A stretch of DNA of 64,000 nt from an uncultured Methanoregulaceae archaeon (GCA_963737635.1 CAVTTL010000001.1:736001-800000); one strand, 5' to 3'. Counted from the first letter of the stretch, positions 27,927 to 48,845 are shown. The notes: generated by a model not told the origin, from the letters alone. Translations and numbers: made by a program.

Positions 27927-28706
27927 CTAGGGCCAAGAAGTAGTACTCTCGGATGCCGCCGTCACAAGATTCCGGGTATAGGTTTCACTCGGATTACGGA
28001 GGATGTCTTGTGTCGCTCCCTTTTCGACAATTGATCCGTGATGCATCACTGCCACCGAATCGCTCATCTGCCCGATAATCTGGAGGTCGTGGGAGATGAG
28101 GAGGAGCGTAAGATTGGACTTTTTCTGGATAGACTTTATCAGGCTGAGCACCTGCGCTTGTACCGAGAGATCGAGTGCGGCTGTTGGTTCATCAGCAACA
28201 ATAAATTCAGGATTGAGTGAAAGAACCCGGGCCAACGCAACCCTCTGCTTCTGGCCCCCCGAGATCTCGAAGGGGTACCGGTCGATAAGATCAGATTGAA
28301 GCCCGACCTCTTCGAGCAGGCCAAGGATACGGTCTTCCATCTCATCCGGCCCGGCCCGTTTCCCAATCTCCAAGGGCTCCGCTACACATTCTCGGATAGT
28401 CATACGGGGATCGAGCGATGTATCCGGATCCTGAAACAGGATCTGCATCCGGGGCCTGATTTTCCGGAGTTCCTTCCCGGAAAGCCCGGTCAGATCGATG
28501 CCATCAAAAGATACTTTCCCGCTCGTCGGTTCGATAAGCCGGAGCGCAATCCGGCCAAGCGTGGACTTTCCGCTCCCGCTCTCCCCGACAAGGCCAAGCG
28601 TCTCCCCTTTTTTAATCGATAGGGAGACATCATTCACTGCAACGGTCTTCTGCCGGCGAAGAAACCCTTTTGTGTAGACCTTGGTGATTCCGTCGAATTC
28701 AATCAT
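27927..28706 (-). CDS. ABC transporter ATP-binding protein (OppF/NikE-like)
   Basis: GESGSGKST, ISGGQKQR, IVADEPT. Confidence 0.93.
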   Translation of the reverse strand: MIEFDGITKVYTKGFLRRQKTVAVNDVSLSIKKGETLGLVGESGSGKSTLGRIALRLIEPTSGKVSFDGIDLTGLSGKELRKIRPRMQILFQDPDTSLDPRMTIRECVAEPLEIGKRAGPDEMEDRILGLLEEVGLQSDLIDRYPFEISGGQKQRVALARVLSLNPEFIVADEPTAALDLSVQAQVLSLIKSIQKKSNLTLLLISHDLQIIGQMSDSVAVMHHGSIVEKGATQDILRNPSETYTRNLVTAASESTTSWP

Positions 28707-29637
28707 ACAAGAAACACCGGACCTGACGGGTACCGCCAACACTTGTTGTTCCGGGGTGTTCCGTTTTGCACCGATCCCACGCTGCCGGGCACCGATTAAA
28801 GAACCTGCATCCCTCCGGTAAGTGAGAGGGCGAAGGGCTCGTTCCGGGAATCGAGTGAAGGCCGGCAGAAGGAAGAGACGAGAGCAGCCCCTTAGTGTAG
28901 GGATGGAGAGGCATGCCGAATACTTCCTTTGTTGGTCCGGTTTCTACGATCTCGCCGGCATACATCACGGCGATCCGGGTACAGAGGAACGATGCCGTTC
29001 CTAGATCGTGGGTGATCAGAAACAATGTCCGGTTTCCCGCAACCTTTTCTTTGATCAGATGAAGGATTTGGATCTTGATCTGTGCATCCAGCCCTGATGT
29101 CGGCTCATCGGCGATAATAACCCGGGGATTGCAGATAAGCGCGAGCGCAATAAGGATCCGTTCCCTCATTCCCCCAGAGAACTCGTGGGGATAGCGGCCT
29201 GCAGCCTGCACCGGATCCTCGAATCCAAGAGCATCAAGCAGCCGGATTACCTCCTTTTCCGCTTCATCGGCAGAACAAAGATGATGGATCAAGAGCGGCT
29301 CTGCGATCTGGTCGCCCACCTTCATTACCGGATTGAGGGTATTTGCAGAATTCTGGGAGATCATGGCAATCTCCTTGCCCCGGATCTGCCGTATCGCATT
29401 TTCCGGTGCAGTCACGAGATCCTGCCCGCCGTACCGGATGGTGCCGCTGATCCCGGCATTTTTCGGCAGAAGGCCCATTACGGCCATACCCATAACCGTC
29501 TTTCCGCACCCGGATTCACCGATAAGGCTTAGAGTGTCGCCTTCGCTGAGGGTAAGATCAACCGTGTCCACAGCCCGTATTTTTCCGGAGCGGGTTAAAA
29601 AAACCACGTTCAGGCCGGCGATCCGTATCAGTTCCAT
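28699..29637 (-). CDS. ABC transporter ATP-binding protein (OppD/NikD-like)
   Basis: GESGCGKT, FSGGMRER, ADEPT, HPYT, C-terminal Cys cluster. Confidence 0.93.
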   Translation of the reverse strand: MELIRIAGLNVVFLTRSGKIRAVDTVDLTLSEGDTLSLIGESGCGKTVMGMAVMGLLPKNAGISGTIRYGGQDLVTAPENAIRQIRGKEIAMISQNSANTLNPVMKVGDQIAEPLLIHHLCSADEAEKEVIRLLDALGFEDPVQAAGRYPHEFSGGMRERILIALALICNPRVIIADEPTSGLDAQIKIQILHLIKEKVAGNRTLFLITHDLGTASFLCTRIAVMYAGEIVETGPTKEVFGMPLHPYTKGLLSSLPSAGLHSIPGTSPSPSHLPEGCRFFNRCPAAWDRCKTEHPGTTSVGGTRQVRCFLYD

Positions 29638-29680
29638 CCCCGATGCCTCCAGGCTGCATACTCATGCGGACCGGGGATGC

Positions 29681-30502
29681 TCATATCCGGTTTACCTCTA
29701 TACGGGGGTTAAACTTCTCTTCGAAACTGTACCCGATCATCCCAAGGGCGAGGGAGATCCCGATAACTGCGATACCGGGTGGCAGGATCCACCACCAGAG
29801 CCCGAGCGCGAGACCGCCCTGCGAGTACGCGTTCTGGATCATCGTCCCCCAGTCCACGGTTGTGGTATCCCACATGCCGATAAAACTCAGGCCGACACCC
29901 ATGAGGAGGAGCTGCTGGGACGAGGTCACAAATTTGACCGTGACCAGCGACATCACATTAGGCAGGATGTGCCGGGACATGATCCGGAAATCCGAGGCGC
30001 CTATCGCCCGCGCACCTTCTACGAAATTGGTCCGGGCAACAGAGAGTACCTGGGATCGCATGACACGGACCCCTTGGACGCTGCTCAGAAGGCCCATGAG
30101 CAGACTCACCTGGACAACACCCGGGGAAAAGAATGTGGTGAGGACGATGAGCAGGACAAACATCGGAATGGGCATCACCACATCGATGACCCGGCATACG
30201 ATCTCGTCGACAATACCGCCATAATACCCGATAACAATCCCGACACTTGTGCTGATCCCCACGGCAAGCAGGGCAGAAAAAAAACCAAAGAGCAGGGTGA
30301 TCCGGGCCCCAAAGACCAGCTGGGCGAAAATATCCTGACCCACCTGATTTGTACCGAACAGGTGATAGTTGTCCGGGGGCTGAAGCGGTTTACCGGTAAT
30401 GGCATAGGGACCCTGCGGCGCGATCAGCGGGGCTGCGAGGGCTATCCCGATATAGATGCACAGAATAGCGATGCCCGCCCACAGTATCGCTCTCCTACTC
30501 AT
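29681..30502 (-). CDS. ABC transporter permease (OppC/NikC-like)
   Basis: HLFGTNQVGQD, FVEGARAIGAS, RHILPN, WWWILPPG. Confidence 0.92.
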   Translation of the reverse strand: MSRRAILWAGIAILCIYIGIALAAPLIAPQGPYAITGKPLQPPDNYHLFGTNQVGQDIFAQLVFGARITLLFGFFSALLAVGISTSVGIVIGYYGGIVDEIVCRVIDVVMPIPMFVLLIVLTTFFSPGVVQVSLLMGLLSSVQGVRVMRSQVLSVARTNFVEGARAIGASDFRIMSRHILPNVMSLVTVKFVTSSQQLLLMGVGLSFIGMWDTTTVDWGTMIQNAYSQGGLALGLWWWILPPGIAVIGISLALGMIGYSFEEKFNPRIEVNRI

Positions 30503-31478
30503 CGTTTCCCATCCTGATCCGCGGATCGATCATCGAGGAGAAGATGTCCGCAAGGAGCATTGCCACTATGGTCATCAGTGAATCCAGGAGGAATATGCCT
30601 TCAAGGAGCGGCAGGTCCCGATTTTTAAGGGCTTCAGTAGTCAGGTACCCGATCCCAGGCCAGGAAAAAACGGTCTCGATAAACACGTTTCCCATGATGA
30701 TCGCGGCGCACTGGAACGTCGTGATGGTCACCATGGGAAGAAGAGCGTTTTTGAGCGCATGACGCCAGAGGATACTCCTTTCATCGAGCCCTTTTGCACG
30801 TGCTGTCGTGATGTAATCTTCCCCGATGACGGTTATCATCGAGTTCCGCATCACGTAGTAATTCCCGGTGGCAATAAAAAACGTCATCAGGGCGGTGGGC
30901 AGAACCGCATGGTACAGCAGGTCCGGGATGGAGAGGCCGGTTGAGAGCACGCTGATGCTACTGAACCCTCCGAGGGGAAACCACCTGAGATAAAAGGAGA
31001 AAACCAGAACGGCCATGATCGCCCACCAGAACTCCGGGATCGCCCGGATCACGATCATGATATTGAAGATCGCGAGATCTTTTTTCCCGCCCGATCTCCA
31101 CCCTGACCATGCACCGATGACAGTACCCAGCAGGATCCCAAGGACCGTTGCCGGCACGATGATGATGAGCGACCAGGAGAGTTTCTCGGCAATCATCGGG
31201 AAAACCGGCGTGCCATAGGCGTAGGAGTACCCCCATTGTCCGTGAAGAATGTTAAGGATATACAGGACGTACTGGTCGGTGAGCGGGAGATCCAGGCCAA
31301 ACTGGTGGCGGAACTGGTCGACTGCTGCCTGGGGAATGGTGTTTGAAAGAGAGAGGAGATAGTTGGTAATGTAGTCTCCGGGCATCAAGTGAAGGAGAAA
31401 GAACGTAATGGTGACACAGACGAAAAACGATGTCCCGCTGTAACAGATGCGGCGCAGGAGGTATTTCCCGCTGATCAT
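30495..31478 (-). CDS. ABC transporter permease (OppB/NikB-like)
   Basis: LMPGD, FGLDLP, DYITTARAKGL, HALKNA, ETVFSWPGIG. Confidence 0.92.
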   Translation of the reverse strand: MISGKYLLRRICYSGTSFFVCVTITFFLLHLMPGDYITNYLLSLSNTIPQAAVDQFRHQFGLDLPLTDQYVLYILNILHGQWGYSYAYGTPVFPMIAEKLSWSLIIIVPATVLGILLGTVIGAWSGWRSGGKKDLAIFNIMIVIRAIPEFWWAIMAVLVFSFYLRWFPLGGFSSISVLSTGLSIPDLLYHAVLPTALMTFFIATGNYYVMRNSMITVIGEDYITTARAKGLDERSILWRHALKNALLPMVTITTFQCAAIIMGNVFIETVFSWPGIGYLTTEALKNRDLPLLEGIFLLDSLMTIVAMLLADIFSSMIDPRIRMGNDE

Positions 31479-31673: not shown

Positions 31674-33329
31674 TTATGATGACTGTACCGGCGTCAGGTT
31701 CTCCAAGACTTTCGGATCCAGGATACTATGATACCCCGGCCCGATATTCCAGCCGGTGAACCGGTCTGTCCGGTATGCCACGAGCGTATCGGTACTGGCG
31801 ACTGGCACTGTTGGCACATCCTGGGCGAGGAGATCCTGCTCCCTGTAGGCCATCTCCAGTATGGCAGTCTGGTTGGAGGTATTCTTGATCTGAGCGACCA
31901 GGCTGTTGTATTCCGGATTATTGTAATTGTAGTAGTTTGTTTTCTGCAAGGGGGTAACGGCGAAATTCCCAAAGGCATCCGGATCATCATGGAGGAGGAC
32001 CGGGAAAGAATCGATAAAGACCGGGTTGGCGTTGACGGCTGTGCGGTACTGGGTTGGATCCTCATAATTCACGGTGCTCACGCTGATCCCCAGCTGCGCC
32101 CAGTCGTTCTTGAGGACAGCGATGATCTTGTCGTTCACGGCGGCACCTTTGGTACCGAGAGGAATGGTGATGGTGACCGGTTTTCCGTCAGGACCAATAA
32201 GAGTCCCATCGGCATTCTTGACAAAACCTGCAGCTGCAAGAAGTTCCTGCGCTTCAGTCAGGTTATAATTGTACATCCCGACATCTGCAGGGTTGACTGC
32301 ATCGCCGGCAAGAGCCGGCAACAGGAAGGTGGTCTCCGTGGGCCTGCCGGTGCCAAACAGGGAGCTCGATCTCGTCGCGGTCGACCGCGTGGCTCATCGC
32401 ATGCCGGAATGTGGAGATGTTGGCCGGGTACTGGGCCATGTTGAACGCAACTTCACATGCTCCTGTATCGTTGATCGAGTAGACCGAGATATTTGGCTCG
32501 CCGGCCAGCTCTGCGCCACTGCGGGGCTGATGCCGGTGACCACATCAATCTCGCCGTTCTTCAAAGCCAGCACCTGGCTGTCGGGATTGGTGATCACCTT
32601 GAGGATCACGCCGGAAATGACCGGTACCCTGCCATGATAATTTTCATTGGTTGTTACCTGGTAATAGCCGGGAGCTGCCTGGGTAAAGGTAAACGGGCCG
32701 GTCCCGATCATCTGGCTGTCCTGGTAATGCTGGGGGTCGGTGACGTTCTGCCAGATGTGCTCCGGCGAAATGGTAATTCCCGGCGTCCGCGAGATCTGAT
32801 CGAGGAAGGCTGAGTACGGGGTCTTGAGGTTGAAAACTGCCGTATAATTATCCGGGCATTCAACAGACTGGACATCTGAGAGAACATAGCTCATAGTGAG
32901 ATTGTGAGCTTTCGGATAATCGTTGGTGAACTTAACATCGGCGCAGGTAAAGGGAGCACCGTCACTCCACGTGGCATTCTGTATAAGATGGAATGTCCAG
33001 GTCTTTGCGTCATCTGAAACATTCCAGCTCTGTGCAAGTGCGGGATCAAATGTGCCGTCAATGTCCTTGATGACAAGATCTTCGTAGATGAGCGAGCCGG
33101 AGGGAATGCCCCCCTTCTGCATGTTGCTGGTATAGCTTAGCGCCGAAGGGGAATCGACCGGGATGATGACGTCGGTAGCGGGGACGTTTGTCAGGTTTCC
33201 TGCGCCGGTGGAGGATGAAGAATCATCCACGCACCCGGCTATGAAACAGAATACCAGAATGCCCATGCAACACAGAGCAAAAAATATGCTGATAGAACGA
33301 TTGTGGGGATGTACTGCTGTATAGTTCAT
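31674..33329 (-). CDS. ABC transporter substrate-binding lipoprotein, family 5 (Ni/peptide/cofactor), split by two indels (32365, 32508)
   Basis: FIAGC lipobox; PALAQSW, WSDGAPFTCADVKF, IGTGPF, ALKNGEID; frames rejoin after single-base corrections. Confidence 0.85.
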
Positions 33330-33409
33330 AGGATAACCTCAGATATCGGAAATGACGGAATCGTAGTGATCAATCGCATGTGGAGTTATTTAACCATTTT
33401 TCTTTAATT

Positions 33410-34639: not shown

Positions 34640-34660
34640 TTAACAAATGATCATAGTTAA
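34640..34660. promoter_or_regulatory. Putative operator TTAAC-N11-GTTAA upstream of the pilin array
   Basis: TTAAC-aaatgatcata-GTTAA with perfect half-sites, next to a TATA-like TTAAATAA. Confidence 0.6.
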
Positions 34661-34748
34661 ATAAAGTCTTTTGAAATATCTATGATGGCATGGTGGTTTG
34701 ATCCCAAGAAATTGATCCACCACTGCACACAAACATTTTCAGAGGAAA

Positions 34749-35462
34749 ATGATGCATTATCTGAAGAAGAGGGTATTACGAAAAAACGGCGAAGAGGCCG
34801 TCTCACCGGTTGTTGGGGTGATGCTGATGCTGGTCGTCACCATCATCATCGCGGCCGTGGTATCCGCATTTGCAGGAAGTACTGTAAGCGGGACTCAGAA
34901 AGCCCCATCAGCTTCCATTGATATTCATGTGAAGAACGGGGGATATAGCTCGAATTCATACTTCTCAATGAAGGTTCAGGGAGTCAGCGATCCGATCCCG
35001 ACGAAAAACCTGGAGTTGATCACCTCGTGGGCGAAAACCGATACGAATCAGGCGGATGGTTCACTGTACGGGCAAGCGTTTCAAGGGGGCAACACATCCA
35101 CAGGAGTAGCCGATGCCTATGTTCCGGGTGACCTGACCGGATCCAGTGGACCGTTTTCCGTACCGACAGGATATGGCACCGGTGTCATGAACTGGTCAAA
35201 CGACACCTATCATACCGTCGAAGCCCAGTGGGGAAATTTTGTCCTTACATCCGGAACATCAACCTATGACGCTCCTATCGCATACGGAACATCCGTGCAG
35301 TACCAATACACTTCACCATCAACCGCATCGGATCCCATGGTGGCCATTCTAGGCCCTAACTGGAACATCCTGAGAGCCGGGGATACCGTTGCGGTACGCA
35401 TCGTGGATGCGAAATCTGGTAAAGTTATCGCTGATCAGAATGTCGTCGTGGAGGGTCCGTGA
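34749..35462 (+). CDS. Archaeal type IV pilin (DUF1628/Pilin_N), long type, array gene 1
   Basis: EEA|VSPVVGVMLMLVVTIIIAAVVSAF; ends WNILRAGDTV...VVVEG. Confidence 0.9.
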   Translation: MMHYLKKRVLRKNGEEAVSPVVGVMLMLVVTIIIAAVVSAFAGSTVSGTQKAPSASIDIHVKNGGYSSNSYFSMKVQGVSDPIPTKNLELITSWAKTDTNQADGSLYGQAFQGGNTSTGVADAYVPGDLTGSSGPFSVPTGYGTGVMNWSNDTYHTVEAQWGNFVLTSGTSTYDAPIAYGTSVQYQYTSPSTASDPMVAILGPNWNILRAGDTVAVRIVDAKSGKVIADQNVVVEGP

Positions 35463-35998
35463 TGCAGAAACAGGAATATGCCGTCTCGCCGGTCGTTGGG
35501 GTGATGCTGATGCTGGTCGTCACCATCATCATTGCGGCCATAGTTTCCGCTTTCGCAGGAGGGGTCGTTAGCGGGACAACCAAACCACCCCAGGCAACCG
35601 TTCAGGCAACGTATAGTCAGTCCACAGGAATGACTATTACCAACAGCGGAGGGGATGCAATCCCTCTGGCATCGACAACGGTCTTGGTAAACCCTACAAA
35701 AGCGTTTGGGTTGAATAACACACGGTTCACGTGGGTAGTAAACAAGTCATATGTCCTCACTGGTTCAGGTCAGACTTGGGCAACTGCCCGGGCATTCCTG
35801 CCGGGCGATACGGCCACGATCACCCAGCAGAACCTGACCTATGTCCAGCAGCGGCCGGATATGGGAGGGGAAAACGATTATACGGACCCGAACATAGGAT
35901 TTGCTAATTCCAACAACCTCGGGCTCACGTTTCAACTCCAGTTCCAAGATTCAAGCGGGAAGACCATAGGGCTGACTACCGTGACGATTGCACGGTAA
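35459..35998 (+). CDS. Archaeal type IV pilin, short type, array gene 2
   Basis: EYA|VSPVVGVMLML; KPPQAT, NSGGD, SGKTI..TTVTI. Confidence 0.9.
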   Translation: MMQKQEYAVSPVVGVMLMLVVTIIIAAIVSAFAGGVVSGTTKPPQATVQATYSQSTGMTITNSGGDAIPLASTTVLVNPTKAFGLNNTRFTWVVNKSYVLTGSGQTWATARAFLPGDTATITQQNLTYVQQRPDMGGENDYTDPNIGFANSNNLGLTFQLQFQDSSGKTIGLTTVTIAR

Positions 35999-36008
35999 GG
36001 AGATATAG

Positions 36009-36794
36009 ATGGTCCAGAATTACCGTGCATGCAGAAACGATTGGGGAGTTTCACCGGTAGTCGGGGTGATGCTGATGCTGGTCGCCACCATCATCATCGC
36101 AGCCGTGGTCTCGGGGTTTACCGGCGGGTTGGTCAACTCGAACAACCAGAAGGCCCCGACGCTCCTCATGGATGTGAAAATAATCAATATGGGGAGCTGG
36201 ACGGGAAGCGGCTTCTTTGCCACCGTTACCGGGGTAAGTGAGCCGATTCCGACAAGCAACCTCAAGATCGTAACCTCGTGGACAACGACAAACAAAATCA
36301 CGGGTGCAACCATCACCGGTGGGAACACTACCCTGCCGGGTAACCCGAATATTAATGTCCTCGGCGACCCGACCGTTCCTCTCTCCGGTTTCTATGCTGC
36401 CCCGTTCGGCACCGGGCCGGGCATCAACGGGACGACAACAGTCGGCGGCTTCGATACGAACCTGACTAGTTTCTCAGGACCCAGGCAGCAGTTTGGGAAC
36501 TATTCCCTGATGACAGGAACCACGATGGTTGCTATGCCCTGCGGCGGAGCTTCCGGCTCTATCGGAGGAACGTTTTCAGGGGGTACTGAACCCAGTGCCG
36601 CCGCTGGATACGGGATTGGGGGATTGTTTGCCTACACCAATTTGATTGGCAGTCCCTATCTCGATCCGATAAGTGCGATTCTCGGCCCCTACTGGGAAAA
36701 CCTGCGGACCGGAGATATCGTAACGGTCAAGGTGATCCATATCCCAACCGGGAAGGTCATCTTCCAGAAAGATGTAAAAGTGACGGAAGGATAA
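36009..36794 (+). CDS. Archaeal type IV pilin, long type, array gene 3
   Basis: DWG|VSPVVGVMLML; GVSEPIPTSNLKIVTSW; ends VTEG. Confidence 0.9.
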   Translation: MVQNYRACRNDWGVSPVVGVMLMLVATIIIAAVVSGFTGGLVNSNNQKAPTLLMDVKIINMGSWTGSGFFATVTGVSEPIPTSNLKIVTSWTTTNKITGATITGGNTTLPGNPNINVLGDPTVPLSGFYAAPFGTGPGINGTTTVGGFDTNLTSFSGPRQQFGNYSLMTGTTMVAMPCGGASGSIGGTFSGGTEPSAAAGYGIGGLFAYTNLIGSPYLDPISAILGPYWENLRTGDIVTVKVIHIPTGKVIFQKDVKVTEG

Positions 36795-36797
36795 GCA

Positions 36798-37415
36798 ATG
36801 AAACAATCTAATAATAATGCAGTCTCGCCGGTGATCGGCGTGATGCTGATGCTGGTCGTGACCATCATCATCGCAGCGGTAGTGAGCGCCTTTGCCGGCG
36901 GAACACTGGGGACCCAGACAAAGACTCCCCAGGCAACGATCAGGGGTATATTCAGCCAGTCGGGAGGGATGCAGATCATCGATACCGGCGGAGATACCCT
37001 CTCCACGGCAAACCTCATGTTTACGGTTTCAAACGACCCCAACTTCGGGCAGGGCCTCTCATCAGCAACAACCCAGATATTACCCAAGTCATTCATTACC
37101 GACATCAACGGGAATGCGATTATGAACAATGATGGAACATCGAACGTAACCGCATTTGGGCCGGGGCAGACGCTGTATATCTCGCAAGCCTCCCTTAATT
37201 GCGGTATAATTCAGCCACAGGTTGCGGATGGCCCCAGCCCCACCTTTTATACCTATAAGTCCGGCACAGGGTGGAGTTATAGCGGAACCAAGTATAACCT
37301 GTGGTCACTGTGCTTTATCAATCCTGCCAATGTCGGAAAAACATTCACCCTTACGATGAGCGACAAGAATTCGGGGGCCGTTCTGGCCAAGACTACCGTT
37401 ACTATCGCTCCATAA
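36798..37415 (+). CDS. Archaeal type IV pilin, short type, array gene 4
   Basis: NNA|VSPVIGVMLML; KTPQAT, TGGD, SGAVL..TTVTI. Confidence 0.9.
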   Translation: MKQSNNNAVSPVIGVMLMLVVTIIIAAVVSAFAGGTLGTQTKTPQATIRGIFSQSGGMQIIDTGGDTLSTANLMFTVSNDPNFGQGLSSATTQILPKSFITDINGNAIMNNDGTSNVTAFGPGQTLYISQASLNCGIIQPQVADGPSPTFYTYKSGTGWSYSGTKYNLWSLCFINPANVGKTFTLTMSDKNSGAVLAKTTVTIAP

Positions 37416-37444
37416 ATTTTTTGGAGGTGTAACGAGGAGGAAAA

Positions 37445-38299
37445 ATGCAGCATCTGAAAAGATTACCGGAAAAAAAGGGCGAAGATGCAGTTTCACCGGT
37501 GGTCGGGGTGATGCTGATGATCGTTATCGTCATAATCATCTCGGCTATTGTGTCGGGTTTTGCCGGAGCATTGGTCTCATCGCAGCAGAAGACCCCAAGC
37601 CTCAGCATGAACGTGAAGATCATCAACATGGGCACCTGGGCCGGAAGCGGTTTCTTTGCCACCGTTACCGGGGTAAGTGAACCGATTCCGACAAGCAAAC
37701 TCAAGATCGTGACATCATGGTCGACGCTCATGTATGGAAGTGGTAATGTTGGACTGCGCCAACTCCCGATAAGCTGCACGACCGCGGTTTTACCTGACGG
37801 TGGAGGCCAGAGTAATATCTTATATCTCGGGAACGCGAGCAATAGTCTCCCTCCCGGCCTCTTTGTTGCGCCGTTTGGTACCGGGCCGGGTGTCAACGGG
37901 ACAGCAGAGACCCTCGGGGGTGTCGATACAAACTTGACGTCATTTTCAGGGGCCGGGCAGCAGTTCGGGAATTATACTCTGGTACAGGGAACTACTCTAA
38001 CGGCTACACCCTGCGGGGCGAATGGTTTTAACGTTATCGGAGGTAGAGGAGGAAACAACGGTAAGGCTGGATATATTGGATCGTCAGTGGGGGAAGATGA
38101 CTGGGCCTACTCAGATGAGATGAGTAGTGGGTGTTATTACAAGACTACATGTGGTTCAAAATATATCGATCCGATCACAGCAGTTCTTGGCTCCAAGTGG
38201 GAAACCCTGAAGTGGGGGGATACGGTAAATGTCAAGGTGATCTACCTCCCGACCGGGGCAGTGATCTTCAACCAGAATGTGCCCGTGACGGAGGGATAA
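37445..38299 (+). CDS. Archaeal type IV pilin, long type, array gene 5
   Basis: EDA|VSPVVGVMLMI; GVSEPIPTSKLKIVTSW; ends VTEG. Confidence 0.9.
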   Translation: MQHLKRLPEKKGEDAVSPVVGVMLMIVIVIIISAIVSGFAGALVSSQQKTPSLSMNVKIINMGTWAGSGFFATVTGVSEPIPTSKLKIVTSWSTLMYGSGNVGLRQLPISCTTAVLPDGGGQSNILYLGNASNSLPPGLFVAPFGTGPGVNGTAETLGGVDTNLTSFSGAGQQFGNYTLVQGTTLTATPCGANGFNVIGGRGGNNGKAGYIGSSVGEDDWAYSDEMSSGCYYKTTCGSKYIDPITAVLGSKWETLKWGDTVNVKVIYLPTGAVIFNQNVPVTEG

Positions 38300-38302
38300 G
38301 AA

Positions 38303-39139
38303 ATGAAATTATCCAATAACAATGCAGTCTCGCCAGTGATCGGCGTAATGCTGATGCTGATCGTAACTATCATCATCGCAGCCGTGGTTTCGGGATTTGG
38401 CGGGAGTTTGATCGGGACGACCCAGAAGGCCCCTACCCTCACCATGGATGTGAACATAATCAACATGGGCAGCTGGACCGGGAGCGGGTTCTATGCTAAC
38501 GTCAGGACGGTAAGTCAACCAATTCCGACCAGTAACATAAAGATTGTCACATCCTGGACGGCAACGAACGGAGGGAATCCGGTATCTGGTGGAAACACGA
38601 TAGTCCCTAACGTGGTGAATACATTCTATTGGGTTGATCCACAACACTCAAGTTTTGGACAAAAAGCGGAAAGTGATGTATTTGCACCGTTTGGGAACGG
38701 GCCGGGGATTAACGGTAGTACTACGTTTGGGGGTGAGGATACGAACGCGAACATTTTCTCTAAAACTGACCAAATGTTCGGGAATTATACGCTGGTACCA
38801 GGGACTTCCATGAACGCCCCGGCAGCAGGAGCGGCAACCCCAAAAATTATCGGAGGTACATGGCACTGCAGCCCCACGGGCTGCAGCTCCACGCAACAGA
38901 ATGGTGGTGTCGCAGGACAAGGAATCAATGGAGATCCGAGCGGTACGGCTGGTTACGGTGTCTACGGGCTGTATAGTTATACAAGTCAGATGATCGATCC
39001 CGTAACCGCAGTTCTCGGTGCCAACTGGAATCTCCTGAGAGCCGGGGATAAGGTAAACGTCAAGATTATCTATATCCCGACAGGCAGTGTGATCTTCAAC
39101 AAGGATGTAACGGTAACGGAGGGATCCACCTCCACCTAA
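38303..39139 (+). CDS. Archaeal type IV pilin, long type, array gene 6
   Basis: NNA|VSPVIGVMLML; PIPTSNIKIVTSW; ends VTEGSTST. Confidence 0.9.
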   Translation: MKLSNNNAVSPVIGVMLMLIVTIIIAAVVSGFGGSLIGTTQKAPTLTMDVNIINMGSWTGSGFYANVRTVSQPIPTSNIKIVTSWTATNGGNPVSGGNTIVPNVVNTFYWVDPQHSSFGQKAESDVFAPFGNGPGINGSTTFGGEDTNANIFSKTDQMFGNYTLVPGTSMNAPAAGAATPKIIGGTWHCSPTGCSSTQQNGGVAGQGINGDPSGTAGYGVYGLYSYTSQMIDPVTAVLGANWNLLRAGDKVNVKIIYIPTGSVIFNKDVTVTEGSTST

Positions 39140-39345: not shown

Positions 39346-41210
39346 TTGTTTGAAAGAAATGGCCGGCTGGTAAAATACTGGTCCGAGATTACCCTTGCGG
39401 GGATCGTTGCTCTTGCTGCGTTTCTCAATCTCTGGAACCTCTGGAACCAGAGTTTCTCGGTTCCCTATTATGCCGCAGCTGTCCGGAGTATGCTCTCCAA
39501 TCCCGGGATTGCATTCTTCAACTCCTTTGACTCCGTTGGTTTTGTGACGGTGGATAAACCCCCTCTGGGGATATGGGCCCAGGCTGCAAGTGCCGCAATG
39601 TTCGGGTTTAACAGCTGGTCGGTGACGCTTCCCCAGGCCCTTGCCAGCGTATGCTCGGTTATTCTGATCTACTTCATCGTCAGGCGACCGTTCGGGAAGG
39701 CCGCAGGCCTCATTGCAGCATTCGTTCTGGCTACCACGCCCATCTTCGTCAACACGGCACGGGATGGCACCATGGACACCCAGATGATTTTTGTCATTCT
39801 TCTTGCCCTCTGGGTGGCCCTCAAAGCGGCACGCAAGCAGTCCCTGTGGATGCTCCTTCTTTCTTTTGCGCTCGTCGGGATCGGATTTAACATAAAGATG
39901 ATCCAGGCGTATGTGGTGCTGCCGGCCCTTATCGTCATCTATCTTTTCGGAACGAACTTCCCCACCCATCAGAAGATGATTCACCTTGCCCTCGCTCTCC
40001 TCGTGCTTGCCGCTGTTTCGCTCTCGTGGGCATTAGCGGTTGATGCCATACCCGCTGATCAGCGCCCCTATATTGGCACGAGCGGGGACAATTCCGTCAT
40101 CGGGTTGATCCTGGGCCACAACAGTGAAGAGGCATTTCTGCTCAAAAACACTGTCGATTCCTCTGGTGGCCCGGGTCTGTTCCTGCTCTTCACACATGCT
40201 GACGTAAGCCTCCAGATCAGACTGGCTGTTGCCGCTGGCCCTCATTGGCCTTTTGGCATGGTGGCGCCGGCCAGAAGCCCTCTCTTTTATGGGTCTCCGG
40301 AAGCTCGGTCTCTTCTCGGAAAAAGGTCTCACCTTTTTGGCGTTCTGTCTGTGGCTGATGCCGGGGCTGATCTATTTCAGTTTCACCTTAGGGTACTGGG
40401 AGAACTACTATTTTGCAACCATTGCGCCACCGCTTGCGGGACTTGTCGGGATTGGTGTAGTATCGATGTACCATGAGTATACGAGCGAGCGGAACACGTG
40501 CTGGGTGCTGGTAGCCTGCAGTTGTTGTGACCGGCCTTATGCAGGCCTGGTTTCTTTCTACTTTTGTATATTTTCTGTGTAGCTTTGTATGCTACAACCC
40601 CATGGGGTACGGTTCCCTTTTTGTCTTCGAGCTGGCAGGGAGTATGGGATGTGCCGCCCTTCTCATCTGGCTGCGGGTAAAAAACCTGCAGGGTACCAAC
40701 CGGTACGCGTTTCCAGTGGCCTGCGTGGCAGTGGCTGCTCTCTTTCTTGCTCCCGTAGCATGGTCATGCCTCCCGTTTGAAACAGGTTCTTCAGCAGATA
40801 TTCCAGGAGGATACAACGCCACTTCATTAACCGCTCCCTTCGCCGGTTTCCTGCTCTCCCATGCGGGAAATACCACCTTCCTTGTTGCGGTTTCTGACAG
40901 TAACATAGCAAGCCCTCTGATTATCGCAACCGGAAAGCCAGTCATGGCTCTGGGGGGCTTTTTTGGGACGGATCAGATCCTTTCAGCAGGGCAAATGCCC
41001 GGCCTAATCCATAACGGAACCGTGCGGTACATTCTTGTCTTTTCCGAAAACCAGTCCGGGGATTACCGGGGAGTCGGGTACGGCGAGAACAATGCGATCT
41101 ATACCTGGGTGGAAGGACATTGTGCGGCAGTCCCTGAACAAGAATGGATTAAAAGCAATGTTTACTTCTGGCGTCAATATGGACTGTACGATTGCGCGGG
41201 AGTCCCGTGA
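39346..41210 (+). CDS. GT39/PMT-like membrane glycosyltransferase, split by two indels (40221, 40515)
   Basis: YYAAAVRSM, VDKPPLG.W, GFNIKMIQA, TGKPVMALGGFFGTD; three ORFs join after removing one base at each AGCT site. Confidence 0.83.
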
Positions 41211-41299: not shown

Positions 41300-41751
41300 T
41301 TTGACAAATCTTCCAGCCCGTCCATACCGATAAACAAGGACCAGACTGTACCGTTGCGACAGGGGATCCCCCGAATACCAATTGTTTCCTTCAGTGACCG
41401 CCGATATAGGTCTCACCCACTTCAACGGTTCCGGAGAAAATCTCCAGAATGTCTTTTGTCATCACCATTCGAAGCTTGGTTAATGCTCTGAGAACATGTC
41501 GCTGCTCGAATCCTGTCTGTTCGACGATTGAATTCGAGCTTTGTTCTAGGAGAAATAGGTGGATGATCTCCTTCCATTCATCTCGTGAAAATGTTAATGG
41601 TAATTTGTGTGGGGTGAATTCATACCGGCATCGCGTACAACGTCTTTTCCATTCTGCAGTTTGTGTAATTTTTTTGAATTGCATCCTGGATATGCAATTT
41701 TTGCCATTTCTAACTCCGTAAATCTTTCTTTGATCTAGGGGTTAAAATAGC
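41300..41751 (-). mobile_element. IS1595-family transposase remnant
   Basis: RRCTRCRYEF zinc finger; FSGTVEVGETYIGG (decayed VEVDETY) then a stop and KQLVFG; boundaries approximate. Confidence 0.7.
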
Positions 41752-41820
41752 ATATTACCCTGAATATAATTCAAGAATCATTCCAAAAGTGTTAACTACT
41801 AGAATGTCGATAAGAAACAA

Positions 41821-41852
41821 TTAACAAAATACAATTGTTAACTAATTGTTAA
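41821..41852. promoter_or_regulatory. Putative operator TTAAC-N11-GTTAA plus an extra half-site
   Basis: TTAAC-aaaatacaatt-GTTAA (41821-41841) and a second GTTAA 11 nt further on (41848-41852). Confidence 0.6.
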
Positions 41853-42947: not shown

Positions 42948-42949
42948 CC

Positions 42950-43803: not shown

Positions 43804-43824
43804 TTAACCATATAATATTGTTTA
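43804..43824. promoter_or_regulatory. Putative operator, TTAAC-N11-GTTTA
   Basis: TTAAC-catataatatt-GTTTA upstream of the methyltransferase, before a TTTATAA TATA box. Confidence 0.5.
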
Positions 43825-43897: not shown

Positions 43898-44767
43898 ATG
43901 TATGTTTTGAGAGGCCCGATGCAGGACGTCAGCACAATAGACTGGAACGAAGTCTGGAAAGAGCGGGAGCGGGAAAAACGATCCCAGGACGAGTGTACCA
44001 GCTGTGCTGATAGATGGTTGGACCCTGAGCGGTGCAGAAAATTCGACCGGATGGTCAAGGAAGATAACTGGAGAGACGCATGGGAACGGATCAGTACCAT
44101 GAAGATCACCCCGGACTCCATAGTTCTGGATATCGGCGCCGGCCCCGGGACGCTCGCGATCCCGCTTTCCGGCATGGTCCGACATGTCACGGCTGTTGAA
44201 CCCTCCGCCGGGATGCTCGAATGCCTTCATGAAAATATCCGAGAACGGAATATACACAATATTACAACCATCCAGAAAAAATGGGAAGAGGTCAATCCCG
44301 ATACCGATCTCGATCCCCCGTATGACGTGGTGTTCGCATCCTATTCGCTGGGTGTGATGGACCTGCAGGCCGCCCTTGAAAAGATGAATGCAGTCTCCGG
44401 CAAATACGTCTACATTTTCTGGTTTGCCGATCTGGTATCCCCCCGTCACCGGCAGTATCTCGAGATATGGGAGGAGCTCTTCGGGGAACACCCAGCTTTA
44501 AACCGGACGCCCAACATCATCTTTAACCTGCTGTACCAGATGGGAATCTCCGCTAATGTTGAAATTTCCCGGACTAATCGTACCATCAAGTTTTCAAGTC
44601 TCGAAGAAGCAGTGGAGGATCAGCGGGATGTCCTGCATCTTAAAGACGAGGGCCAAATTATCATCCTTAAAAAATACCTCCAGAAAAAGCTGCGGTACGA
44701 AAACGGGCAGTATTTCATGGAAATGCAGGCCTCCCAGGCAAAAATCTGGTGGGAGAAAGAGAGCTGA
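43898..44767 (+). CDS. Class I SAM-dependent methyltransferase
   Basis: IDWNEVW, VLDIGAGPGTLAIPL, AVEPSAGM, YDVVFAS; start may be 43919. Confidence 0.88.
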   Translation: MYVLRGPMQDVSTIDWNEVWKEREREKRSQDECTSCADRWLDPERCRKFDRMVKEDNWRDAWERISTMKITPDSIVLDIGAGPGTLAIPLSGMVRHVTAVEPSAGMLECLHENIRERNIHNITTIQKKWEEVNPDTDLDPPYDVVFASYSLGVMDLQAALEKMNAVSGKYVYIFWFADLVSPRHRQYLEIWEELFGEHPALNRTPNIIFNLLYQMGISANVEISRTNRTIKFSSLEEAVEDQRDVLHLKDEGQIIILKKYLQKKLRYENGQYFMEMQASQAKIWWEKES

Positions 44768-44957
44768 AATACCCAGGGAAGGGTTCCTCACCCGGCCGGT
44801 TGAATTCCTGAACGTTGACTTTCTCATATCACCACTCGTTCAGTAGGTTTCCCGGCGCAACTGCCCGTTCAGTCATTGTATTTAATAAATGGAAAAGTTA
44901 GTACAATATTATAGATATGGCTTCCAATTTTACGTACCCGGACAAAGGGGGCAAAAA

Positions 44958-46613
44958 ATGAAAACCGGATATTTAATCACTATCGTTATTCTGGTGAGCC
45001 TGCAGGTACTCTTTGGCATCCCGGTGGCTGCGTCCGGGGATTCCTGCACCCTTACCATGCTTTCCATTCCTAACGGAGCCGCAATCAGTATTGACGGGAC
45101 GCTTATCGGCACCACTCCCCAGCAGGCACTTGATCTTTCCTGTGGCAATCATACGGTAGTACTGAGCGCAAACGGCTTTTCAAATTACGTTGACAATGTG
45201 ACCCTGGAACCCGGAAATCCCCAGACAATCGTTGGAAATCTCCTGAATGTCGGGGATCGCGGCAGCGTCTATATCAGATCAGACCCCCCGGGAGGGGACA
45301 TTTATGTTGACGGTGTCCTGCGAGGCACAACACCGCTCCTGCTTGATGCACTCTACCCCGGCCCCCATGCTATCCTGATCCGGAAAACCGGCTATCAGGA
45401 TTATAACGATATCGTAACTGCAGGGCCAGGACTGACACCGGAGTACAACGAGTTCCTAGTCCCACTTCCGCAGACCGGGTTCCTGGGTGTTGTATCCTCT
45501 CCCAGCGGGGCAACGGCCTTCCTCGATGGTACCCTGCTTGGGACAACACCGACTGTGCTCTCCAGAGTTGCCGCAGGCGAACACACTATCCTTGTCCAGG
45601 AACAGGGTTACAGGAACTCCACGCAGACTGTTGAAGTACAGGGAGGTACATCCGGGCTTGCACAGGTGTATCTCGAAAAAATTCCCGATACAGGAACTAT
45701 TATCATCGACTCTTCGCCCGGCGGTGCTGCTTTGTATCTGAACGACACGTACAAAACCGTGACACCGGCAAACTTTGAAGATGTCCCCGCAGGGAATTAC
45801 ACCCTTTCCTTCCAGAAGCCTAATTACACTACCCAGAATCTCTCCTTCACCCTTTCCGGCGGTGAAACCCTTGAAATTTATGCAACACTCAGCACCGATC
45901 CCAACGATACCAGTCAGCCATCTGTCCAGAGTTACAATAGTAATGGGAATGATACTTCAGATGCAGCCGGGACGGGACCGATCATTGAAAAAACCTACAG
46001 CTGGTACTCACTGGGCCATGCACAGACCATTACCCTGCATATACCGCAGAGCCTGTATGATTATTACCAGAACCAGTCGCATGCGACTTCTGCTGCGATG
46101 CTGAGCACGTATGCCCTCAGCGACGAGGACCAATTCTACCTGCATGAATTAGTCGGGCAGCTCAAGGATACCAGCGGGAACCAGAATCTTGCTGCACGTA
46201 ACGATTACCACAATGTCGTCGCGTTTGTACAGTCCGTTCCTTATGCATTGCATACGGACCCTTCGACCGGTCAGGCCACTACTGATGCGAATGACTACTG
46301 GAAATATCCGGTTGAGACTCTTGTTCAGGGAAACGGGGACTGCGTTGACGATGCGATCCTGGCAGCTTCCCTGCTCAAAGAAATGAACTATGATGTTGCG
46401 ATCGTACTGCTCCCCCAGGTGAGCGGCGAACCGGCAGGTCACGCAGTAGTCGGCATTGCCTGCGACAACTGTAACGGATACTATTACCCGATCAATGGCA
46501 AGAAGTATTATTATCTGGACCTGACTGCTCCAGGTCTGGCCCTTGGCAAAATGAGTTACCCGGGACAGCAGGATATGTATGCCAATGTTCCTGCGCAGGT
46601 CGTCGTGCTTTGA
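44958..46613 (+). CDS. Secreted PEGA-repeat protein with C-terminal transglutaminase-like domain
   Basis: Four S.P.GA.(I/L)..DG...G.TP-type repeats; YPVETL..G.GDCVD, GHAVVG, YYLD (Cys-His-Asp). Confidence 0.85.
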   Translation: MKTGYLITIVILVSLQVLFGIPVAASGDSCTLTMLSIPNGAAISIDGTLIGTTPQQALDLSCGNHTVVLSANGFSNYVDNVTLEPGNPQTIVGNLLNVGDRGSVYIRSDPPGGDIYVDGVLRGTTPLLLDALYPGPHAILIRKTGYQDYNDIVTAGPGLTPEYNEFLVPLPQTGFLGVVSSPSGATAFLDGTLLGTTPTVLSRVAAGEHTILVQEQGYRNSTQTVEVQGGTSGLAQVYLEKIPDTGTIIIDSSPGGAALYLNDTYKTVTPANFEDVPAGNYTLSFQKPNYTTQNLSFTLSGGETLEIYATLSTDPNDTSQPSVQSYNSNGNDTSDAAGTGPIIEKTYSWYSLGHAQTITLHIPQSLYDYYQNQSHATSAAMLSTYALSDEDQFYLHELVGQLKDTSGNQNLAARNDYHNVVAFVQSVPYALHTDPSTGQATTDANDYWKYPVETLVQGNGDCVDDAILAASLLKEMNYDVAIVLLPQVSGEPAGHAVVGIACDNCNGYYYPINGKKYYYLDLTAPGLALGKMSYPGQQDMYANVPAQVVVL

Positions 46614-46677: not shown

Positions 46678-47550
46678 ATGAGTACGAGGAAACAAATGGC
46701 AGTCGAAGGATGCCGCCCACTTGTCCTTATCATTCTTATCTTACTCATGACCGGTTCAGCCGGGTGCATCAAGGCTGCGCAGAACGCCCTCAGCGGAGGA
46801 TCCCCGACCGGGGAATCATCCAGTCAACCGGTCGTGACCACTATGCCGACCGTGTCACAGGCCGATTTTCCGCAGAGTACTCCCACTGCCAGCCCTGTCT
46901 TCAACCTGACACCTGAAAAGTCGGATCTTGTTACTGAAGTGACCCCGGATGTAACCCCGGATCCTTATGTCTTCCCCCAGGCTATTCAGATCAATAAAAC
47001 CCCCCTGCAGTCTTCTTTCCTCTATAGGACGCCAGAGTTCAGGAAGATCTATACCCTCAGAGGCAATGCAATTGGTCTTCTCGTAAACGTGGTGCAGGGC
47101 CCTCTCTACATTGTCTATACAGTCAATCCAATGAACGATTGTCTTGAAGATGCGGAATCATGCCGGGGTTCAAATCCGACATATACGGATGCATCCGGCA
47201 ACTCATACACTACCGTCAACTCGGTCAACAACCCGTACATGACGATCACCGTCCGGGACAACCAGACAAATGAGATTGTAGCCGAGGACGGATACGGCCG
47301 GCAGTACAGCTCCGATACCGGCACATACCAGTTTTCCAACAATGGAAATCTATCCACGTCTGTTAACGGCCAAACGACGGTGACCTCCGTCTCAGTGCCG
47401 GGCCCCCGCTATATTCCGATTTACAGTGCGGGCCAGTTCCAGATCACTATGCAAGGAGATTATCTCTCTGTTGATCTCTCGATCATTACCGGTACATCGC
47501 TCAATCCACTGGACACGACGGAAAATTCCCAGAAAAATGCCCCGACATGA
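46678..47550 (+). CDS. Hypothetical lipoprotein
   Basis: GSAGC lipobox, Thr/Pro linker, beta-rich domain. Confidence 0.72.
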   Translation: MSTRKQMAVEGCRPLVLIILILLMTGSAGCIKAAQNALSGGSPTGESSSQPVVTTMPTVSQADFPQSTPTASPVFNLTPEKSDLVTEVTPDVTPDPYVFPQAIQINKTPLQSSFLYRTPEFRKIYTLRGNAIGLLVNVVQGPLYIVYTVNPMNDCLEDAESCRGSNPTYTDASGNSYTTVNSVNNPYMTITVRDNQTNEIVAEDGYGRQYSSDTGTYQFSNNGNLSTSVNGQTTVTSVSVPGPRYIPIYSAGQFQITMQGDYLSVDLSIITGTSLNPLDTTENSQKNAPT

Positions 47551-47710
47551 GAATCGGGGGATAAACAATTCCGGGCCATTTCAACCTGCCAATTTGATCA
47601 AAGGAACTCCATAACAAAGATTTGTATTCAATAAACAGGGAATACAGCAATGCGAGATCCACCGGATCCCATAAATACCGGAGTGCCTGATGAGAAGGAT
47701 GATGATTGGA

Positions 47711-48271
47711 ATGAGTGATTACGAGACATTATTTAACAAGGCAAAAGAATTTCATGGGCATCTCTGCCCCGGCATCGTGCTCGGGACCCGGCTGACAATC
47801 GCCGGTCTGCGCGAGCTGGGCATGAACCCACATGAACCGATCCGCAACCTGATCGTGTATATGGAGATCGATCGCTGTGGCACCGATGCTGTCCAGGCTA
47901 TTACCGGGTGTTCTCTAGGCCACCGCAGCCTCAAGCATAAAGACTTTGGAAAATTTGCAGCCACTTTTGTGGATACCAATACCGGAAAAGCAGTCCGGGT
48001 ATCGATCCACGAGAAGAACCGGGCTGAGCACGACAAACTTGATCCAAAAGAGGTCATCAAAGTCCTTTCCAATGTCCCGGAAGACGAGATCCTGAAAATT
48101 GAACAGGTCAGGATCACCATACCAAAGGAGGACCTGCCTGGTTTCCCTATAGGAAAAGCGGTATGCAACAAATGCGGGGAGCAAATATCCGATAACCGGC
48201 AAACGGTATCTCACGGCAAAGTGTTCTGCAGAAACTGCGCCGGGGAATTGTACTATTCGATAATCAAATGA
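47711..48271 (+). CDS. fmdE: FmdE/FwdE family protein with C-terminal zinc finger
   Basis: FHGHLCPG, EIDRCGTDAVQ, C..CGE...C..C. Confidence 0.88.
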   Translation: MSDYETLFNKAKEFHGHLCPGIVLGTRLTIAGLRELGMNPHEPIRNLIVYMEIDRCGTDAVQAITGCSLGHRSLKHKDFGKFAATFVDTNTGKAVRVSIHEKNRAEHDKLDPKEVIKVLSNVPEDEILKIEQVRITIPKEDLPGFPIGKAVCNKCGEQISDNRQTVSHGKVFCRNCAGELYYSIIK

Positions 48272-48388
48272 ACGATCCGAATTCCTTTTCTTAAAAAATT
48301 CCTTCTTTTTCGTTTTCTGGAAAAATGCACCAGACCTGAACGTGCTCATAATTGAGTATAGCCGTCACGTTTAAAAAAAGGAGATTTA

Positions 48389-48598
48389 TTAGTCCACGGC
48401 GATCATAACTTCGCTGGACTTAATGACTGCATAGGCCGGTACACCAACGGCAAGCCCGAGGTTTTCGACCGATTTCTTGGTAATGATCGAGGTGATTTCT
48501 TGTCCTCCGGGAAGCTCAATCGTGATCTCTGAGTTAACACTTCCCGGTATGATCCTCTTCACTTTACCTTTCAGCATGTTTCTCGCACTGATCTTCAT
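48389..48598 (-). CDS. Mop/TOBE molybdate/tungstate-binding protein
   Basis: MKISARNMLKGKV, ITSIITKKSVENLGL, AVIKSSEV. Confidence 0.9.
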   Translation of the reverse strand: MKISARNMLKGKVKRIIPGSVNSEITIELPGGQEITSIITKKSVENLGLAVGVPAYAVIKSSEVMIAVD

Positions 48599-48845
48599 AT
48601 TTTTTTTCACCATCGTTCACTTATGTGAAACCACTATTTGAAGATATGGATGCGGATAAGCCTACGACGAAAACGCTCCAATAAGGTAAACGTATAATTA
48701 TTTACAACATCAAAAAATCAAAAGACATCGCAATCCATTTTTAGTAAATATAGGCTTGAATAGACAAAATTTTCCTAATAAAACTATGTATAGTCCCTAG
48801 ATCAATATACAAAACTATTTAATAGAGAGAGAACGACTGTGGATT

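Follow-up and report, generated by a model that had tools for sequence, protein, structure and literature searches.

Predicted tandem type IV pilins beside a nickel-type importer in an uncultured Methanoregulaceae archaeon, and their possible role in metal acquisition

Why should six pilin genes stand in tandem beside a five-gene ATP-binding cassette (ABC) importer of the nickel and oligopeptide type? The question is raised by a 64,000-nucleotide stretch of DNA from an uncultured Methanoregulaceae archaeon (hereafter the window; G000:C1:736001-800000), in which a block of genes at 27927-48613 brings together the importer, the pilins, three small secreted proteins (bb1-bb3), an S-adenosylmethionine (SAM)-dependent methyltransferase (MT) and several further genes. 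The source assembly comprises 2.46 Mb in four contigs and is 90% complete. Gene content was taken from a listing of open reading frames (ORFs) together with Pfam and NCBIfam profile scans; G000 denotes the genome of the window, other G numbers the sampled genomes of relatives, and L numbers their loci. An initial annotation, made from the sequence alone, had taken the block for one co-regulated system in which a surface filament captures a metal or metallo-cofactor and feeds the importer. Our analysis found that the block is a composite around a module conserved in the family to which the window belongs, and sequence comparison suggests, at a strength a little short of an even call, that this is a metal-responsive, probably nickel-responsive, pilin module which aids acquisition. 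The features on which the argument turns are as follows.

27927-28742 and 28699-29637, minus strand: two ATPases of the importer, Nik/Opp/Dpp/Cnt type (Pfam)
29681-30502 and 30495-31478, minus strand: two permeases of the importer, Nik/Opp/Dpp/Cnt type (Pfam)
31674..33329, minus strand: family-5 substrate-binding protein with a lipobox (IAGC), closest to NikA, PF00496 on both of its pieces
33389..33408, unstranded: promoter element TTTAACCATTTTTCTTTAAT of the binding-protein gene, from a promoter alignment of six loci
33714-34163, plus strand: orf149, a conserved 149-amino-acid cytoplasmic protein, no family match
34640..34660, unstranded: perfect palindrome TTAAC-N11-GTTAA, starting 109 nt upstream of the ATG of the first pilin gene, pil1
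34749..39139, plus strand: six tandem pilins, PF07790 (E 7e-13 to 1.5e-22, all over the cut-off), namely P 34749-35462, p 35459-35998, P 36009-36794, p 36798-37415, P 37445-38299 and P 38303-39139
41821..41841, unstranded: perfect palindrome TTAAC-N11-GTTAA, starting 48 nt upstream of the ATG of bb1
43804..43824, unstranded: palindrome with one mismatch, starting 94 nt upstream of the ATG of MT

The pilin array, the importer and their linkage in relatives

The six tandem pilins of the initial annotation were all recovered by the profile scans. They are of two types, four long proteins (P; 237, 261, 284 and 278 amino acids) and two short ones (p; 179 and 205 amino acids), arranged in the order P-p-P-p-P-P. 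Alignments of 116 P and 102 p sequences show the motif [AG]VSPV[VI]GVMLML with little or no variation, and a class III signal with a hydrophobic helix, the criterion for archaeal type IV pilins, was found in all six. AlphaFold2 models built from these alignments reached predicted local distance difference test scores (pLDDT) of 85.5 for P and 89.9 for p. Foldseek searches of the PDB placed the P model next to a Cuniculiplasma filament (8rey_A, E 7.4e-4), followed by 8gi2 and 8fj5_A (Natrinema and Haloferax pili), and the p model next to Haloferax 8fj5_A (E 2.3e-5), followed by 8tib_A and 6nav_A (Sulfolobus pili), with modest TM-scores of 0.27-0.50 for both. P and p are predicted from these models to be archaeal type IV pilins with the pilin fold, a long N-terminal helix and a beta-sandwich head.

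The family-5 ABC importer was likewise identified by Pfam and NCBIfam as five genes on the minus strand, with the five components of NikABCDE: one SBP_bac_5 protein, two permeases and two ATPases. Its best NCBIfam matches include NikB/C/D/E, Opp and Cnt, each below its cut-off; nickel or a nickel chelate is a candidate substrate. The importer had been described as divergent from the pilins; orf149 sits between them, so that the two are not direct neighbours. No match for orf149 was found in Pfam, NCBIfam or the PDB, and in the Atlas only unnamed archaeal clusters were obtained, with a weak PD-(D/E)XK lead at 0.83-0.85. Homologues of orf149 are present in 41 of 61 family genomes, where they often adjoin MT, FmdE and TOBE genes; in G025 the homologue is divergent from nikR. 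A paralogue, 70% identical, was also seen at G000:C1:1914668-1915114.

The 585-nt spacer between orf149 and pil1 (34164-34748) contains several stretches of 7-8 T, as is typical of archaeal terminators, and gave no Rfam match. A NikR-like gene hidden in this spacer was considered and rejected, as tblastn of NikR against the window returned nothing below E 0.7. The 9-mer GCAGGGATC occurs five times in the window (34380, 34526, 39238 on the minus strand, 43700 and 15686; 0.83 expected); four of the five copies lie in intergenic DNA of the block, and no function was found for it.

Linkage was surveyed by scanning the long-pilin alignment against one genome per species, which gave 74 loci with up to 10 kb of flank on each side. 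These come mostly from Methanoregula and other Methanomicrobiales, plus two Methanosarcinales, and the presence of each window protein was scored by tblastn at 1e-5. P was present in all 74 loci and p in 71-72, while PilB and PilC were each present in 30, the machinery-linked pilin in 24 and the pilin-like protein orf315 in 22. The importer (binding protein or permease) was found in 17 loci, MT in 21, FmdE in 15, the lipoprotein in 13, orf149 in nine, the PEGA-transglutaminase in seven, TOBE in five and the bb proteins in 2-4. Neither the glycosyltransferase of the block nor its transposase remnant was present in any of the 74 related loci. The glycosyltransferase and the insertion sequence (IS) remnant are local additions outside the conserved module, and the bb genes are probably local additions as well. 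The named loci closest to the module of the window are those of Methanoregula and other Methanoregulaceae.

Three arrangements of importer and pilins were observed. In six loci the importer is co-directional and directly precedes P-p (gaps of 157-415 nt), in a second arrangement it is divergent from the pilins, as in the window, and in a third the binding protein directly follows P-p (gap of 149 nt). A reverse test was also made from the importer side, in which orthologues of the binding protein (at least 50% identity) were found in eight genomes (G000, G025, G187, G029, G068, G031, G054 and G064), that is in seven of 61 family genomes and in one further genome of the same genus from an order-level sample of 151. 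P pilins lie within 10 kb of the orthologous binding protein in six of these eight, namely the window, G025, G068, G031, G064 and G187. In the neighbourhood analysis that the initial annotation had proposed as a check, these pilins are therefore recurrently linked to a family-5 ABC importer, to methyltransferases and to FmdE, and their link to the importer persists in three gene orders. As judged from gene neighbourhoods, the link between importer and pilins is real but confined to the family of the window.

MT-like and FmdE genes were also seen to flank a FecCD-type importer (permease, ATPase and binding protein) beside the pilins of G004 (L010:4666-8861), as well as more distant family-5 importers in G042, G034 and G021 (L128, L129 and L132). 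The link of MT and FmdE to metal-type importers is therefore wider than their link to pilins.

A shared palindrome and the position of nikR

The initial annotation had reported one palindrome common to four units of the block. The palindrome is real and precedes three units (pil1, bb1 and MT), but the importer promoter carries a different element. This element, TTTAACCATTTTTCTTTAAT, is nearly invariant across the six aligned loci, with two variable positions, and is unique in the genome at up to two mismatches. Since the importer promoter has this element of its own and lacks the palindrome, the claimed co-regulation of importer and pilins found no support.

The palindrome, in its fuller form a 21-bp site TTAACA-N9-TGTTAA, was found by reading promoters after the binding-protein promoters of the six loci had been aligned. 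Scans for perfect palindromes with arms of 5-8 and spacers of 0-8 bases, and with arms of 6-7 and spacers of 0-20 bases, found no arm common to two intergenic regions; they are silent on TTAAC-N11-GTTAA because this site has 5-base arms and an 11-base spacer. The sequences ATTAACAA, TTAACAATTGTTAA, CAGGGATCCCTG and GGATCC were not above chance. In the window, four sites occur at up to one mismatch, against 0.87 expected, and one of the four lies within a coding region. The 2.46-Mb genome contains four perfect copies, two of them in the block, while other spacer lengths gave 0-2 copies each. The third perfect copy stands between nikR (NikR_C plus ribbon-helix-helix domain) and cbiQ-cbiO, which are 720 nt apart, and the fourth starts 86 nt upstream of a gene for a secreted protein of 318 amino acids.

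A total of 27 perfect copies were found in 1.40 Mb of related loci, or 19 per Mb compared with 1.6 per Mb in the genome. Seventeen of them are upstream of a P gene, three upstream of bb, two upstream of MT and one upstream of a binding-protein gene, with four elsewhere. Of the 87 P genes that open an array, 29 carry the site in the 300 nt that precede them, 19 in perfect form and 10 with one mismatch, compared with 0/49 internal P genes, 1/129 p genes and 21/2000 random windows. The site also lies upstream of bb genes in L047, L048 and L049, and is free of mismatches at the MT orthologues of L066, L048 and G076. Five other genomes of the genus hold eight perfect sites, four of which are at nikR-cbiQ (G076), in the gap between P and the binding-protein gene (G025), at MT (G076) and at TOBE/FmdE (G052).

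Comparison of site frequencies by neighbouring gene revealed higher values where the importer is present (11/17, against 5/57 where it is absent), and the same was observed for orf149 (8/9 against 8/65), MT (12/21 against 4/53), FmdE (8/15 against 8/59) and TOBE (4/5 against 12/69). No association of the site was found with PilB (5/30 against 11/44). One-mismatch copies with AT-rich spacers were seen upstream of an Nramp transporter gene (G000:C1:2244798) and beside a second CbiQ-CbiO pair (C1:1884187); chance matches of this kind are common.

Genes for NikR itself recur beside the pilins of relatives. In seven of the 25 family genomes with P, a NikR_C gene is found no more than 6.2 kb from a P gene, and in six of these the distance is at most 1 kb. 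A NikR or NikR_C ORF stands 0-5.6 kb from a pilin in 10 of the 86 fetched loci. Maps of four loci place full-length nikR orthologues, 73-85% identical to the NikR of G000, beside PilC/orf315 or after P-p. Short genes for the nickel-binding C-terminal domain of NikR alone (87-134 amino acids) were also seen 29-36 nt before P in G033, G057 and G072, and 244 nt before it in G069. The positions of NikR C-domain genes that precede P are as follows.

L182:14640: NikR C-domain gene before P
L184:12430: NikR C-domain gene before P
L185:8740: NikR C-domain gene before P
L186:15380: NikR C-domain gene before P

Overall, two classes of P-p locus appear to exist, one with the assembly machinery and nikR and the other with the importer, orf149, MT and FmdE, and the window joins both. 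The nikR-cbiQ copies and the near-matching half-sites suggest NikR as a candidate binder of the palindrome: in one delta-proteobacterium, half-sites GTAACAC/GTGTTAC in reversed orientation are given in the NikR account of PMC545781, and TTAACA/TGTTAA is one base off their GTAACA/TGTTAC core, again in reversed orientation. The association in 8/9 loci suggests orf149 as a second candidate.

Other genes of the block and its surroundings

The remaining genes of the block, and the pilus machinery that precedes it, are listed below.

20219..21752, plus strand: two KaiC-like ATPase genes (20219-20935 weak; 21054-21752 KaiC_arch_3), PF06745 E 1.9e-52, TIGR03880 357 bits against a cut-off of 249
22395..24644, plus strand: PilB/FlaI-like secretion ATPase with a membrane-spanning N-terminal extension of about 330 amino acids, PF00437 E 5.5e-37
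24574..26478, plus strand: PilC/TadC-like platform protein, PF00482 in two stretches, E 1.8e-20
about 26516-26947, plus strand: pilinU, the machinery-linked pilin, PF07790 E 3.9e-20
26950-27897, plus strand: orf315, a 315-amino-acid protein with a pilin-like N-terminus (read in the sequence)
39346..41210, plus strand: PMT_2/YkcB_C glycosyltransferase, split over three frames (Pfam)
41391..41684, minus strand: remnant of an IS1595-like transposase, N-terminal part only (translation)
41869-42333, about 42477-42947 and about 42950-43570, plus strand: bb1, bb2 and bb3, three small secreted proteins, no Pfam family
43898..44767, plus strand: MT, class I SAM-dependent methyltransferase, PF13649 and related families
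44889-46613, plus strand: PEGA-transglutaminase, four PEGA domains and a transglutaminase-like domain (Pfam)
46678-47550, plus strand: lipobox protein (lipoprotein; Pfam)
47690-48271, plus strand: FmdE with a C4 zinc ribbon, PF02663 E 4e-32
48389-48613, minus strand: Mop/TOBE, PF03459 E 5.7e-20, TIGR00638 86 bits against a cut-off of 55

The block directly follows pilus assembly genes, as the initial annotation had observed: a PilB-like ATPase, a PilC-like protein, a pilin and the pilin-like 315-amino-acid protein occupy 22395-27897. The PilB-like ATPase is below the NCBIfam FlaI cut-off (375 against 550 bits). A prepilin peptidase gene stands elsewhere in the genome (G000:C1:362197; PF01478, 30 bits against a cut-off of 26.5), so that assembly ATPase, platform protein and prepilin peptidase are all encoded. 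The PEGA-transglutaminase and the lipobox protein form a conserved pair that accompanies PilB/PilC in relatives. A second PilB/PilC pair was seen upstream of the KaiC genes at 16374-20025 on the minus strand; its PilB is in two pieces in different frames and looks frame-broken.

Pfam and NCBIfam also bore out the glycosyltransferase (PMT_2/YkcB_C), the SAM methyltransferase, the PEGA-transglutaminase, the lipoprotein, FmdE and Mop/TOBE. The best NCBIfam match of MT is CpaM, at 41 bits against a cut-off of 180, and the glycosyltransferase has two intact-looking paralogues elsewhere in the genome. Where two secreted beta-barrel proteins had been proposed, three small secreted proteins were found, and neither Pfam nor the Atlas provides a family behind a beta-barrel fold: bb1 gave no family in the Atlas, with a lipocalin-like lead at 0.77 only. 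bb2 is a paralogue of bb1, and the repeats D5, D7 and D12 lie in the bb1-bb3 stretch. The transposase remnant, which is situated between the glycosyltransferase and bb1 and which we take from its zinc-ribbon motif to be IS1595-like, was seen again at the DNA level (41382-41760; 72-84% identity), with five matches in G011 and single or few matches in G010, G009 and G004; these comparisons indicate a mobile element of the genus that is multi-copy in relatives. Downstream of the block the genes are housekeeping ones (TldD/PmbA, LonB, phosphoribosyl pyrophosphate synthetase and thermosome). An Rfam scan of the whole window matched nothing except one transfer RNA gene, at 58078-58162.

What was listed by the initial annotation is present, but frame breaks, the transposase remnant and the conserved 149-amino-acid gene had escaped it. 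Its observation was largely right, and its palindrome is real. Its interpretation was partly right: the recurrent linkage, the shared control site and the metal theme stood, but a molybdenum/tungsten (Mo/W) or cofactor substrate, the bindosome analogy and capture by the filament found no support.

A possible nickel-responsive pilus and its rivals

The metal theme is upheld by three observations: the binding protein is closest to NikA, a copy of the palindrome lies at nikR-cbiQO, and nikR lies inside the pilus loci of relatives. The nickel-responsive reading would work as follows. A metal-responsive regulator, with NikR as first and orf149 as second candidate, would bind the palindrome, and under nickel scarcity it would release the pilin operon, bb1 and MT. 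The prepilin peptidase would cut the pilins and the neighbouring PilB and PilC would assemble them. The role of the filament in acquisition would be an indirect one: it might, for instance, keep the cell attached to nickel-bearing particles or open the envelope, and the actual uptake would fall to the lipid-anchored binding protein and the ABC importer. Stated in full, the proposal is that nickel shortage leads members of the Methanoregulaceae to produce a dedicated type IV pilus, that a metal-sensing repressor (NikR or orf149) at TTAACA-N9-TGTTAA releases the P-p operon, MT and the small secreted proteins, and that the filament is one of the functioning parts of high-affinity nickel acquisition beside a NikA-like importer; in this complete form we consider it possible, on the doubtful side. 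The system resembles NikABCDE/NikR of Escherichia coli in its five-component family-5 importer, in a binding protein closest to NikA and in an inverted repeat at a nikR-linked nickel/cobalt transporter. It differs in that the binding protein is far below the NikA cut-off and the site stands before pilin genes rather than before the importer.

Several results weigh against a nickel-responsive module. At the level of the importer, the intact orthologue of the binding protein in G012 scores 152.9 bits against the TIGR02294 (NikA) cut-off of 393, and it is under the Opp4A (125 bits) and CntA (115 bits) cut-offs too. None of 25 binding-protein genes has the site within 300 nt upstream at up to one mismatch. 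Genome-wide, 29 sites at up to one mismatch compare with 56 for a backwards control, which is no enrichment, and perfect counts in five sister genomes are not above control. Only two of 30 family nikR loci have a perfect site within 1.5 kb, and the palindrome occurs in only one of the 10 nikR-bearing pilin loci, which makes NikR uncertain as its binder. The half-sites are 9 bases apart here, against 15-16 in the delta-proteobacterial NikR signal of PMC545781; the NikR operators in that account are 7-mers separated by 13-14 bases, where the window has 6-mers separated by 9. The pilins are poor in histidine and cysteine, with 0-4 cysteines and 0-3 histidines each, and nothing in their sequence points to direct metal binding, so that the capture of metal by the filament itself, as first proposed, finds no support there. 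On the side of linkage, 57 of 74 P-p loci lack an importer within 10 kb. In G029 the importer is present but the pilins are on other contigs, and in G054, which also has the importer, a search of the genome for P gave no match at 1e-20. Pilins are likewise absent from 12 family-5 loci of greater distance (20-47% identity); six of these belong to three other families (40-47% identity), and some of the six have short flanks. Finally, the loci are related to one another, so that Fisher values overstate the association.

Some of these results are shared with the main rival, in which pilins and importer are neighbours by descent: the pilus would be an ordinary adhesion pilus, the importer would take up nickel or peptides independently, and the palindrome would be a pilin-specific operator with no link to metals. 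The confinement of the linkage to one family, the pilin loci that lack an importer, the importer promoter that lacks the palindrome and the genome-wide counts all agree with it. So does the description in PMC4858521 of pilus loci that have these companions and no transporter: the passages on pilus systems link a transglutaminase-family surface peptidase to pili in Methanomicrobiales and report KaiC-family ATPases co-transcribed with the pilus core operon in Methanomicrobia. Those loci share with the window a PilB/TadC-type core and PF07790-type pilins, besides the peptidase link and the KaiC-family ATPases. The words 'ABC' and 'transporter' never occur in the main text of that paper, and its passages on these loci contain no P-p pairing, importer link, nikR link or palindrome, although its supplementary tables may list such neighbours. 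Against descent alone stand the persistence of the linkage across three gene orders, the placement of one of the four perfect genome sites at nikR-cbiQO, repeated in G076, the presence of the site at MT, which is not a pilus gene, and the occurrence of nikR inside pilus loci in four genera. On this balance we regard mere neighbourhood by descent as a serious alternative, yet one that is somewhat unlikely.

A third explanation is that the locus is decaying, with the frame breaks in the genes for binding protein and glycosyltransferase, and the IS remnant, as marks of pseudogenisation. Each of the two genes has two indels, and the transposase remnant lies in the locus. Compared with the intact orthologue of 548 amino acids in G012, the binding-protein gene lacks one base and, about 140 nt away, has one extra base; the glycosyltransferase reading frame passes through three frames. 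When 242 ORFs of at least 200 amino acids from same-genus loci were compared with the G000 genome, 85 had an orthologue, and nine of these (eight distinct genes) were split between frames. It is because of this genome-wide rate that indels of the assembly are favoured over decay, and gene breaks in this assembly should not be taken as pseudogenes without reads. Other split genes were met as well (the second PilB of the window and a CbiO elsewhere), and the broken stretch of the binding protein is still conserved sequence when read in the shifted frame. The gene breaks are probably assembly indels, and a decaying system is unlikely.

A true bindosome, with the binding protein carried on a filament or pseudopilus of P and p in the way proposed for the sugar-binding proteins of Sulfolobus, is very unlikely. 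In the window, as in the Sulfolobus/Saccharolobus bindosome (BasEF, BasABC), a binding-protein-dependent ABC importer has genomic ties to pilin-like proteins and to an ATPase and platform of the pilus type, and the idea of scavenging at the surface is common to both; the pilins adjoin the importer with gaps of 149-415 nt, and a proposal published in 2026 (PMC13705601) describes pilus machineries as 'functionalised' by binding proteins that bear a class III signal. The analogy fails at the defining feature. Among 18 orthologous binding-protein N-termini, 14 have a lipobox cysteine and three a plain membrane anchor, while one sequence is without its N-terminus; a class III signal or pilin motif was found in none of the 18, whereas the binding proteins of the bindosome carry a class III signal. 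Lipobox proteins were left out of the screen as described in PMC13705601. Here it is the pilins, not the binding protein, that lie in or beside the importer operon, and the importer is of family 5 (Nik/Opp type), not a sugar system. The PilB and PilC of the window are also far under the cut-offs for BasE (NF053672, 157.6 against 1000 bits) and BasF (NF053673, 31.4 against 1300 bits). A complex prediction with P head, p head and binding protein of locus L115 scored 0.00 in both runs, without controls, and is neutral on binding.

The filament that captures Mo/W or a metallo-cofactor, which the initial annotation had drawn from Mop/TOBE and FmdE, is the least likely of all, since, for all that Mop is over its family cut-off, that FmdE and TOBE recur among the pilin loci and that a perfect palindrome stands by TOBE/FmdE in G052, the importer is of the Nik/Opp/Cnt type and not of the Mod/Wtp/Tup type, the regulator genes that recur in the loci are nikR and the palindrome-bearing transporter elsewhere in the genome is CbiQO, so that the evidence points to nickel.

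Among known archaeal pili, the Epd pili of Methanococcus maripaludis offer a further comparison with the proposed nickel-responsive module, as adhesion pili with several minor pilins and dedicated machinery. According to the relevant section of PMC13705601 they are of another system class, with two platform genes and a pilin without globular domain, and that section describes no transporter or metal link for them. Literature searches on NikR with archaeal pilins and on Methanoregula pili with nickel found, judged by title and abstract, no paper on this subject; supplementary files may list such neighbours.

Methanogens have a large demand for nickel, for F430 and hydrogenases. The release of nickel from nickel-bearing pyrite is reported to need direct contact between cell and mineral. 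Such contact would gain a candidate molecular basis in a pilin operon that position and a common control site connect with nikR and with nickel-type transport genes. If the proposal is true, archaea would have here their first pilus that is regulated by a metal and serves to acquire it, and also a bindosome-like system without class III binding proteins; the idea of a nutrient-scavenging pilus would then no longer be limited to binding proteins that bear pilin signals. With its defined 21-bp site and its two candidates for the regulator, the hypothesis can be tested directly in cultured Methanoregula strains.

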